A DNA stretch of 63,891 bases, counting the filler, from Mycoplasmatota bacterium (GTDB taxonomy: Bacteria > Bacillota_I > Bacilli_A > RF39 > UBA660), in NCBI GenBank assembly GCA_012727915.1. It is 5 parts of 5 records of this genome, joined end to end, with 100 filler letters (N's around TTAATTAATTAA, not from the genome) between each part and the next. Parts side by side here need not be neighbours in the genome. Positions count along the whole stretch, not along the records: positions 1 to 7,446 come from JAAYGD010000055.1; positions 7,547 to 25,677 come from JAAYGD010000056.1; 3 more parts are not named here. One strand, given 5' to 3'. Within the stretch, counting starts at the first letter, position 1. Each line of letters begins with the position of its first letter. Position numbers: made by a program. Positions 1 through 7,842 of the stretch are shown one piece after another.

Positions 1-3000
1 GAACATTACTTAATTAATAATATAGAACAAAAAAATAAAGTAATTGATAAATTACAAAATATAATGAATACTATGCACTTAAACAATTAACATAATTATG
101 ATTTGTTTGTGGGAAGTGATGTGATAGGCTTATTAGCAAACGGCTTAAATTGAAGCTGTTTGCAAGCCGTACAAATCACATTACTGGGTTCATGCAAACA
201 AATTTATTGCTATATACTATAAAATGTGTGTTATAATTAGGATGTAGATTTAATCAATGATTTTTTCTTAAATGAGTCCAGTTAAGGCTCCAATAAAAAT
301 TAAAAAGACTCATATGAGTCTTTTTTTTATAATTCGCTTTTTTCCAATCTTTATATTCTTTTTTCATACATTTGACACAGGGTCTATACCCAGCTTCAAT
401 AGCGTTTTTTTCATTATCGAAGAAAACTCTATTATATATATAATATCCTTTTGATATCCAATAAAGCGCACTATAACAATCTAATTTACCATATGTTTTT
501 ATCTTTTTATTACCCCCTAATGTACCTGGTATCTTTGAAATATGTTCTTTATTATTTGAATCAATTATTTTATATTCTTTTTTTCCATGTGTTAAAAAAT
601 TATCTTTTACAATCTTTAATAAAGTTAAATATCTTTCTTTTGTATCTTCATTGCTCAACAAATATTCTCTAGTTCTTTCTTGCCCTTCATCATAATTAGG
701 ACTTTCATCTTTAAATTTTTCCTTAGCTAAATCTATTATTTTATTATTAATCATATTATAATAATGACTTCCAAAACTTGTCATGCATCTCATTATTTTT
801 CCGCCTAAAAAATCATTTACTATTAATGATGTTATCGAACATTGCCCTAAACTGGAATTGTCTTTATTCCAATTATCTTTCAAAGAAGAAACGCATGTTT
901 CTTTGGACCAAGATAATTTTAAAATATTGTCCAACTCATTTAACATAATACCATCCTTGTTTAAAACCTTTAATGTTTATATTTAAATAATACTGAAGGT
1001 CTATGTCCTCCCCCTGTTTTCATTTTATCAGTCTTTTCTACTTTGTTAGCAATTATTCTTCTAAAAGCGGGATCTAATAATTTTTTTCCTAAAATAATTT
1101 CATATACTTGTTGCAATTCTCCTAAAGTAAAATATTCGGGCATCATATTAAATACTATATCGGTATATTCTAATTTGTTTTTTAATCTTGATATACCTGA
1201 AGCAATAACTAAAGCATGATCAAACGCTAATAAATTATTGTCTTCAACTGCGTATTTATACCTATCTGTTGTCTTTTCATATAATATTTTTTTTATTTTC
1301 AAATTAATAATTTCTATTCCATTGTTTAAATTAATAAATATATTGCTTTTTGTTTCTTTATATTCAACATTAAACCAAGATGTATTAGTAGATAAATCAT
1401 CATTTAATTTATCTTTATCTATTAATGCCATATATGCTGTACTAACTATTCTCATTCTTGGGTCTCTATTTACATCACCAAATGTGTATAATTGCTCCAA
1501 ATAAATATCCTTTAAATTTGTTTCATTTTTTAATATTCTTTTAGGAGCATCTTCTAAATCTTCATCAATATTTATAAATCCACCTGGTAAACACCATTTC
1601 TCTTTAAATGGATAAGTATCCCTTTTTACTAAAAGAATACTAAAGTATTTTTCATTTAATTTTCTATAATTCTCTTTTTCTCCACTTGATACACTAAATA
1701 TTAATACATCAGTAGTCATAGATAATTTTTCAAATTCATTAGAATTATAATGCTTTAAAAAATCTTCTTCACTTTTATATTCCATATTGATTCCTTTCTA
1801 ATATCTCTTCCTCAAACATATCAATTAAGTTATTATAAATATATTCTTTATTTTTTGATCTTTCTTTGTGTTTTGTAGTTAAAGTTAAACAATAAAATAT
1901 GTCTTTATCACTATCATATATACTAATAAATATTTCATTATCATTTCCAAATAAATTTTTATTATCTTCTCTATTTATTTTTCCAGTAATCCCTATTCCA
2001 AAATTAGATTTAGTATATAAAGAGATTGCTTTAGCCATTTCTTTTGCTACTTCGATATTATAAACTGAACACTTATCTATTGTATCTTTTGATACTCCTA
2101 ATTTAATCTTATATTCATTAGAATAAGTTACAGCTCCAAATTTAAATACATCACTGGAACCTTCAATATTAGTTATTAAATTCGAAACAAAACCACCAGT
2201 ACACGATTCCATAGTGGATATAGTCAAATCATTTGTTTTTAAATACTCAATTATTTTATTCATTAAATCCCTCATATAAATTATTTTTCAATATATACTC
2301 TATTATATCACTATCCAATAATTTATTTAATTCATTGTATTTTTTTTCTAATATTAATTTTCTAATATTGGTTGAAGATATATTTATTGATTCATAATTT
2401 TCTATTAGTATAAAAGAATCCTTCTTATTAAATCTATTTATATAAACATACGGGTCTAATATTTCTCTTTTCATTACTATTACTTTATTTAATAGTATTT
2501 CATCAATATTTTTCCATTTATCAAAATTAATTAAATTATCATCTCCAATAATTAAATATAAATCATTATAATATTTTTTTAATTCATTAAGAATTTGATA
2601 AGTATATTTATAAGAATTTAATTTAGTATCAATAATAATTTGATCATTTTCGTAATATTTTAGCATATTTATTCTATTTTTAATATTTACTAAATTATTC
2701 TTTTCCCAATAGGATTTAGTAGGAATGATAATTATTTTATCTAATATTTTATTTTCCAATAAATAATTTACTATATTAATATGTCCCTTATGAACAGGAT
2801 TAAAACTTCCTACGTATACTCCTACTTTCATATTATCTCCTATAAGTTGGTATATTAAATTTATGTTGATTATTGTCATGCATTTTCTTTATTTTATTTC
2901 CAACTTCTTCATTTACTCCTTTAGGATCAACCATATAATTAGCAATATCTTTATAACTTACTCCCAATTTATCTTCATCTGATAAAGTTGATAATCCATC

Positions 3001-6000: not shown

Positions 6001-7842
6001 GGATATCTGTCAAATTCTCTACACCCTTTATTGTGACTATCCTTAATAAATGCAAGTCCTTCTCCTTCCCTTAAAGTTTCATCAATCAATCTTAATTGTT
6101 CAGGAATTATAGATTCTATTTTTCTATCAGACATAATTCCTTCCTTTACGAACCCATTTACCATATCGACTACAATTAGTAATTTTTTTAATTCTTCTAA
6201 ATTTTTCATATTTACCTCCTTTTTAGATAGAATTTTCTTTCTGTTATTAACATTATATTAATAACAATTTAATTTGTCAATATGTTTTTAACATTCTGTT
6301 AATAAGATTGTAAAAAGATGAATTTTTAATTCATTTATGATATTATATTTGAAAGGAGGTCTTAATGAAAAAGACATTATTAATTTTAGCGGGAGGTATG
6401 GGTAGTAGGTTTGGTGGTTTAAAACAAATTGAACCAATTGGGCCAAATGGTGAATTTTTAATTCATTACTCTATATATGATGCGATTAAATCGGGATATA
6501 ACAAAATAATATTTATCATTAAAGAAGAAAACTATGATGTTTTTAAAGAAAAGGTAGGAAGCAAGTTAGATAAAGAAATTGAAATACATTACGTATTTCA
6601 AAAAAATGATGAAATAAAAGAAAAAATAAACATTCCAGAAGATAGATTGAAACCTTTAGGAACAGCACATGCCATTTATTGCGCAAAAGACATTATTAAA
6701 GAAAACTTTACAATAATAAATGCAGACGATTTTTATGGAAGAGAATCTTATCAATTATTAAGTGATTTTATGGAAACAAGCAAAAACAATTTCTGTATTG
6801 CGGGTTATGTTTTAGGAAATACAGTAACAGAAAGTGGTTCAGTAAAAAGAGGTGTTTGTATTCAAAAAGATTCAAAACTAATTGAATTAGTTGAAAGCAA
6901 TATTGAAAAGATTGAAAAAGGATATAAAGCAAGCGCTTTAACAGATAGTAGAGATATAAAAGTAACTTTTGATACTTTAGTATCTATGAATATGATCTCA
7001 TTTACTCCAAAATTATTTGATTATATCGAAGAAAACATATATAATTTCTTTAATAATAATATAGATAAAATAGATAAAATTGAATATTTAATACCAGAAG
7101 TTATGAATGAAATGCTTCAAAAAAAGTTGGTTGAAATTTCAGTAATAAAAACTCCTGCTAAATGGTTAGGTATGACATATAAAGAAGACAAAGATATAGT
7201 TGAAAAAGAAATTAAGGATTTAATTAAAAAAGGAGTATATCCAAGCATATTATTTTAAAAGAAGTTGATAATTCAACTCCTTTTTTTAATACTTATAAAT
7301 CCAATTTTGTTTTCTTTTATAAATTCAATTACACTTTCTTCATCTTTATAATCTATATCTTTAATAATACTATATCCACCATCAAATGTTGTTTGGTAAT
7401 AATTATTGTTTTTTTGATTGAATTCATAATCATAACAATCTTTTGANNNNNNNNNNNNNNNNNNNNNNNNNNNNNNNNNNNNNNNNNNNNTTAATTAATT
7501 AANNNNNNNNNNNNNNNNNNNNNNNNNNNNNNNNNNNNNNNNNNNNCAAAATGAGTATAAGGGCGCAGAAGGAATATGAACATGCCTAGTAGATTTATAA
7601 AAGAAATAAATAAAGAATATTTAGAACTTGAAGAGACTTTACCTGAAGAAAAGGAATCTTTTGTTGATTCGTTTTATGAAGAAGATGTTTATTATGAGGT
7701 TGGAGAACATGTTTATCATGATACATTTAAAGATGGTATAGTAGTATCTGTAGAAAACAAGCTTGTCAATATAGCTTTTGGTAAAAAATATGGAATAAAA
7801 AAATTAATGAAAAATCATAAATCATTAAGAAAGATATGGTGA

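Follow-up and report, generated by a model that had tools for sequence, protein, structure and literature searches.

The NAD salvage operon

The window is a stretch of 63,891 nucleotides made up of five joined contigs of G000 (Mycoplasmatota bacterium GCA_012727915.1; 873 kb, 76 contigs, 93.8% complete), an uncultured gut bacterium of the RF39 order. Seven minus-strand genes lie at 970–6209 on contig C38 in the order pncA-pncB-NUDIX-nadE-nadD-cinA-nrtR (Table 1), with nrtR co-oriented with the salvage genes, and domain matches for each of the seven show that the NAD salvage operon reported in the survey's finding is real. The gene for the PnuC transporter, which was also listed there, is present on a contig other than the operon's. 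A gene for an NAD-dependent DNA ligase, on the contig that follows in the window, shows that G000 needs NAD. The NUDIX hydrolase gene is present in 41 of 80 related loci. The YunG-domain gene has no homologue in those 80 loci and one in the relative G081, and is rejected as a conserved replacement for nadK. No other operon gene substitutes for nadK in the 80 loci; the best candidate, family f25, occurs in five of the 31 nadK-negative loci.

Table 1. Features of the window discussed in the text, by position.
Feature	Coordinates	Strand	Basis and remarks
YunG-domain gene 3' of nrtR	254..946	-	PF24585
Closed nadK slots	947..1785	-	cinA and nrtR overlap by 11 nt; only 23 nt from nrtR to the next gene
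nrtR, NUDIX-type repressor	970..1785	-	NrtR_WHD PF21906
cinA/pncC, NMN deamidase	1775..2275	-	PF02464, E 1e-26
nadD, NaMN adenylyltransferase	2256..2831	-	TIGR00482, 109 bits (cut-off 112); RF39 NadD profile, E 1e-63; start likely at 2831
nadE, ammonia-type NAD synthetase	2833..3588	-	PF02540, E 1e-49
NUDIX hydrolase, ADP-ribose pyrophosphatase-like	3585..4181	-	PF00293, E 9e-10; NudE model under cut-off
pncB, nicotinate phosphoribosyltransferase	4181..5635	-	NAPRTase_N and NAPRTase_C
pncA, nicotinamidase	5616..6209	-	Isochorismatase PF00857, E 4e-19; opens the operon in relatives
NAD-dependent DNA ligase	7846..9837	+	Next contig; named from sequence; 58% identical to a G042 gene matching PF01653
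murB, intact	26831..27724	+	MurB_C; full-length alignment to 4pyt, 3tx1 and 1hsk; cofactor type unreadable

Absence and distribution of NAD kinase

The reported lack of an NAD kinase in G000 is borne out by four profiles. PF01513 has no match up to E≤10 and finds all 14 of its controls, and PF20143 has none at E≤1 (positive control G066, 45 bits); an RF39-built NadK profile searched against all six frames gives a best E of only 0.037, and the best E for one made from 62 Bacilli NadKs is 0.031. Nor does the RF39 profile find nadK in the two genus mates that are at least 90% complete, both of which have a longer operon than G000, also without the gene. The claim that nadK is missing across the genus, which the survey made for seven genomes, stands for the three tested here.

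Order-wide, the RF39 profile (18 NadK sequences) was run against 251 genomes at ≥90% completeness. It matches in 45 of them, spread over 27 of 110 genera and always with a best E≤1e-42, one copy being broken; the other 206 (82%), among them 3- to 6-contig assemblies, have no match. The widespread absence in the family that was first seen in 56 of 61 genomes is thus upheld in a larger sample. An undercount through the short Pfam model was rejected, with 45 for the RF39 profile vs 46 over the Pfam cut-off. We take the absence of nadK to be real and lineage-wide, and no artefact.

Where nadK does occur, it mostly sits with the salvage genes. Of 80 related nrtR loci, 49 have it within 6 kb, and in 36 of these 49 it immediately adjoins nrtR; in G218 a broken copy is found between cinA and nrtR, and in certain relatives the gene is located outside the operon. 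Of 65 nadE-bearing genomes 37 have nadK, eight have nadK without nadE, and 178 have neither, such that nadK is largely nested among operon carriers. It appears to have been lost from the operon of G000, which is otherwise intact.

In a quick tree built without one table-4 outgroup and without G218 (a neighbour of G085), 43 RF39 NadKs fall on one side of a branch with a support of 99 and 19 from other Bacilli on the other, and the copies of a single genus fall apart in five genera. These placements fit one origin of nadK with later loss and exchange, the tree itself carrying no direction. In a class sample NadK matches in 83 of 150 genomes; six other Bacilli families are mostly without it (0/12, 0/11, 0/6, 0/3, 1/8 and 5/12), and the loss is therefore recurrent. 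RF39 NadK was also considered as a possible NADH kinase. At the residue that decides this specificity (PMC8553519), 70 RF39 NadKs have V (28), I (12), A (9), S (6), K (4), T (3), M (3), C (1) or F (1), with three unread and none having Arg.

Redox enzymes of G000

The Pfam scan covered 724 of the 945 predicted G000 ORFs at E≤1e-12 or 1e-13; outside it lay ORFs shorter than 110 aa, 34 of the 53 longer than 700 aa, 17 ORFs in ribosomal operons, the LigA ORF, and six more from four small contigs. Six-frame searches with matching controls found no G6PD, Gdh, aldehyde dehydrogenase, NfnA or malic enzyme, and 6PGD, Icd and PntAB were not found among the 724 ORFs; novel enzyme types aside, G000 has no recognised NADPH-regenerating enzyme. 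DHFR was not found in a six-frame search, nor were FolD, Dxr, HMG-CoA reductase or fatty-acid synthase among the scanned ORFs. The redox set comprises GAPDH, GpsA, MurB, two TrxB-like proteins, three SDRs, Dus, ThyX, MnmG and GalE, together with an incomplete UDP-glucose dehydrogenase, genes resembling RnfC/D and two flavoproteins left unassigned. MurB normally uses NADPH.

The cofactor types of SDR, GpsA, DHFR and aldehyde dehydrogenase were read with residue rules that we assume to hold. Two of the G000 SDRs have an Asp after beta-2 (NAD-type), and the third, which is common to G000 and the near-closed relative G042, has a lysine at the NADP position and could produce NADPH from some substrate. 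The W-x-R arginine of 1z82 occurs in none of 20 RF39 GpsA proteins (G000 and 19 found in 30 relatives, nadK-positive or nadK-negative alike). An NADP-type GAPDH was rejected, as six of six read carry the NAD-type Asp. TrxB1 has lost both GGGxxA and HRR, and with them its entire pyridine-nucleotide motif; it aligns best end to end with the short 6gna-type enzymes, which depend on ferredoxin. TrxB2 has QMLDKLT in place of HRRDxLR, a motif whose role is described in PMC5627308, and all three arginines are gone. The 2'-phosphate residues are missing in G000 from both TrxB-like proteins, GpsA, GAPDH and two SDRs, the third SDR being doubtful. We note that cofactor motifs are poor predictors of preference and that all of the genomes are bins.

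Redox enzymes of relatives

A set of 40 nadK-positive and 40 nadK-negative genomes was hand-chosen, the negatives favouring few contigs. None of the 80 has a match to G6PD or Gdh. A 478-aa aldehyde dehydrogenase is present in 13 of the positives vs three of the negatives, and NfnAB in five vs one (G128); either NfnAB or an NADP-compatible aldehyde dehydrogenase is present in 17 vs four, with a p of 0.002 that is overstated because related genomes are not independent. The aldehyde dehydrogenase was not accepted as GapN, as it scores equally with four types of enzyme. In 23 of the 40 positives, all four of the generators looked for are missing.

DHFR is present in 99 of the 251 genomes, 80 of them among the 206 nadK-negative ones, and the idea that it tracks nadK was dropped (odds ratio 1.15). 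Seven of eight nadK-negative DHFRs keep the G-R-x-T arginine, a count that excludes G147, whose domain was lost in trimming. The full HRR/NRR..R motif is present in the best TrxB match of three of 15 nadK-negative and six of 15 nadK-positive genomes. The survey's suggestion of a switch to NADH is supported in G000 by the residues of both TrxB-like proteins, GpsA and two of three SDRs and by the lack of an NADPH generator, with no reading obtained for MurB, Dus and ThyX, and it fails as an order-wide rule on the 80 retained DHFRs and the three arginine-rich TrxBs.

The near-closed G042 (834 kb, five contigs) has 448 of its 798 ORFs in common with G000, and 287 of its 288 other mid-length ORFs were scanned. 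NAD synthesis, NADK and an NADPH generator were all not found there; LDH, GpsA, MurB, Dus and DHFR are kept, and an aldo-keto reductase and a nitroreductase are also present.

Several observations run against life on NAD alone: the DHFRs of nadK-negative genomes, mostly with ordinary residues; NfnAB in the nadK-negative G128 and the candidate aldehyde dehydrogenase in three nadK-negative genomes; and the lysine-bearing SDR, the aldo-keto reductase and nitroreductase of G042, and the nadK-positive genomes lacking a generator.

Proposed life on NAD(H) and its alternatives

With nadK gone, no NADPH regenerator found, strictly NADPH-linked pathways absent and most of the remaining enzymes without NADP-type residues, we hold with moderate confidence that G000 makes NAD from niacin and would neither make nor cycle NADP. 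Its few redox reactions would run on NAD(H) and ferredoxin, and MurB, Dus and ThyX, with DHFR in relatives, may function adequately with NADH where NADPH is absent. NADH would suffice because the cell's biosynthetic needs are very small. Across the order, nadK would be an accessory gene with a single origin, moving together with the salvage operon and found more often in genomes that have an NADP-linked enzyme.

An alternative, which we regard as rather unlikely, is that NADP(H) enters the cells ready-made, through the route that must also supply NAD, FAD and CoA, perhaps from a host cell or from lysed neighbours, for use by MurB, DHFR, Dus and TrxB. It draws on a point that the survey had missed, namely that NAD synthesis is wholly absent in most of the order: NadD matches in 72 of the 251 genomes, leaving 179 without, and NadE is unmatched in 186. 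Five or six near-closed relatives are without NAD synthesis; in five of them (G246, G157, G028, G042 and G054) NadD, NadE, NadR and NadK were not found, yet LigA, GAPDH and DHFR are kept. The cytidylyltransferase-fold matches in these genomes are TagD- or TmcAL-like, with none in G246, and G054 has one PncB-like match. FAD synthetase and CoaE were likewise not found in any of five genomes tested, G000 among them. With NadD, FAD synthetase and CoaE missing, whole cofactors must be imported, and uptake of NADP is therefore mechanically plausible; moreover, DHFR and some TrxBs still carry NADP-type residues, and carpenter-bee gut lactic acid bacteria need NAD(H) or NADP(H) for growth, NMN and NaAD being insufficient (PMC10433979). 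However, no transporter was identified (an NTT/TLC search gave no match in five genomes, though no control matched either), NADP-type residues are lost in G000's own enzymes, and imported NADP+ would be useless without a reducing enzyme, none of which was found in G000 or G042, such that NADPH itself would have to enter in stoichiometric amounts. As no NADP+-reducing enzyme was found, we favour NAD-only metabolism over import.

It is improbable that a non-homologous or moonlighting enzyme, such as a P-loop kinase or a phosphotransferring phosphatase, makes NADP in G000. Plants do possess a non-homologous, zeta-toxin-fold NAD kinase, NADKc (10.1101/521658), and the earlier statement that NADK is the only known NADP-forming enzyme is incorrect in this respect; in G000, however, the corresponding PF06414 reaches 17.5 bits at best against a cut-off of 22.3, and a kinase of this fold was rejected. 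A hidden kinase would suit the independence of DHFR from nadK, and there are 261 of 705 mid-length G000 ORFs without a family at strict cut-offs. Of 59 family-less proteins common to G000 and G042, 32 were rescanned and a single kinase emerged, a 182-aa P-loop protein; it belongs to the dNMP kinase family and was discarded as an NAD kinase. The survey had also left the weak PF01513 matches in relatives as a caveat. Twenty were fetched and have lipid-kinase motifs, the three put through a domain scan are of the YegS/DAGK type, and BLAST finds no G000 homologue for any; they are lipid kinases and not divergent NADKs. Such diacylglycerol-kinase-like enzymes are absent from G000. Against any hidden kinase, no gene family replaces nadK in the operon, and an NADP+ reductase would be missing even so.

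That nadK is present in the cells and absent from the bins is very unlikely. In favour of it, G000 is in 76 contigs and 93.8% complete, neither enolase nor ProRS turned up in its scan, and some relatives have nadK elsewhere than in the operon. Against it, the 206 genomes without the gene include assemblies of 3 to 6 contigs, carriers are recognised at E≤1e-42, and G000 has a closed slot in the operon, where its genus mates have no nadK and G218 has a broken copy.

Extending NAD-only metabolism beyond G000 is more tentative, and we put it at slightly under even that most of this widespread gut order uses NAD only and no NADP, that most members are unable to make even NAD and acquire it intact, along with FAD and probably CoA, via an undescribed route, and that nadK is an optional add-on moving with the operon.

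Comparison with known systems

Whether life needs both NAD and NADP has so far been answered only by modelling (PMC9168515). If the reading proposed here is true, most RF39 members would be natural single-coenzyme cells. The order offers natural pairs of close relatives with and without nadK in which TrxB, GpsA, MurB, DHFR and Dus can be assayed. Because the synthesis of NAD, FAD and CoA is also lost more widely, we predict an uncharacterised cofactor uptake system, and the loss hints at culture-medium supplements for the group. In the literature searched, which took in few subscription papers and no supplements, there is no report of nadK loss in the order or of a natural NAD-only organism; an RF39 genomics preprint has no word beginning 'NAD' in its main text (10.1101/2020.01.21.914887), and HRGM2 describes the order as metabolically dependent and names other metabolites (10.1101/2024.12.11.627901).

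Contrary to the survey, these are not the first bacteria without nadK; NAD-only life, which models allow, we found demonstrated in no organism. Of 636 bacterial genera, 96% have an annotated NADK, Chlamydia being the textbook exception (PMC4518329), and Chlamydia trachomatis lacks both NAD synthesis and NAD kinase (PMC4518329, PMC3136453). The likeness extends to most of the order, where NAD synthesis is absent and import is inferred; C. trachomatis differs in being an intracellular parasite, and G000, which has the whole salvage route and makes its own NAD, does not fit a description as lacking NAD biosynthesis. C. trachomatis also retains the oxidative pentose phosphate pathway, whereas G6PD is found in none of the 80 relatives. 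A second precedent is provided by Mycoplasma hyopneumoniae, M. flocculare and M. hyorhinis, which have no NAD kinase homologue (PMC4866288). They too are reduced relatives, and M. hyorhinis keeps DHFR as do 80 genomes here, but they are wall-less and host-attached. As presented in PMC4866288, the NAD kinase reaction was gap-filled and an absence of NADP is not raised; such gap-filling in metabolic models can mask real biology.

The carpenter-bee lactic acid bacteria are similarly gut Bacilli needing an intact dinucleotide, but they have a normal genome size and keep nadD, and the main text of PMC10433979 never uses the term 'NAD kinase'. The model of PMC9168515, in which an NAD-only metabolic network is feasible, agrees in predicting that one coenzyme is sufficient, and differs in being a computation with no organism. 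Finally, NrtR-controlled Firmicutes operons have the same gene set (pncA-pncB-nadD-nadE-pncC-nrtR) and differ in that in the RF39 order nadK is embedded, patchily, in the operon.

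Acquisition of NAD

No match to NadD was found in 179 of the 251 genomes of the order-wide sample, nor to NadE in 186 of the 251, and these absences imply that intact NAD must enter such cells by some uptake route. PnuC is kept in G000, the genome under study, although no NadR was seen; both of its genus mates carry pnuC-nadR inside the salvage operon (L309 and L310), together with an ORF of 663-669 aa. The G000 gene following nrtR codes for a YunG domain fused to a cysteine-containing C-terminal region, which has no Pfam match at 1e-4 and which we take to resemble the Ada metal-binding domain.

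Further Bacilli families in the class sample also mostly lack nadK (f13, f16, f18, f20, f22 and f8). In G196, a relative that has the gene, a nearby ORF starts with a serine-recombinase-like motif. The putative 478-aa aldehyde dehydrogenase of relatives always has a conserved gene of ~394 aa ahead of it (L325-L334).

Coordinates of features in G000 and its relatives
Feature	Genome	Position	Remark
YunG-domain gene	G000	window 254-946	after nrtR
PnuC	G000	L144:1847-2527	
ThyX-like protein	G000	L172:15461-16642	394 aa
FTHFS	G000	L162:11983-13641	
PfkB-family kinase	G000	L147:563-1453	two genes ahead of pyruvate kinase
RnfC-like and RnfD-like genes	G000	L154:10065-12378	
Heliorhodopsin	G000	L116:1856-2632	
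mTERF matches	G042	L292:2303-6470	
ORF near nadK	G196	L005:1-586	two genes from nadK

Folate, glycolysis and cofactors

The Pfam scan of G000 (724 of 945 predicted ORFs) showed no GlyA, FolD or DHFR, although a ThyX-like protein and FTHFS are present, no PfkA, and no Rnf subunits beyond the RnfC-like and RnfD-like ones. Neither enolase nor ProRS was seen, and these two absences are possibly bin gaps. Between the genus mates G040 and G082, DHFR occurs in G082 only, and a search with the G000 GpsA as query found no GpsA in either.

In G000, a small cluster of genes includes heliorhodopsin, DUF1295 and DUF2177. Three neighbouring proteins of the near-closed relative G042 have matches to mTERF, a family found mainly in eukaryotes.

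FAD synthetase and CoaE are each absent from all five genomes compared (G000, G246, G157, G028 and G042), even though flavoenzymes occur. The usual site of ribF is between truB and rpsO, an interval that in G000 is occupied by an unrelated gene.
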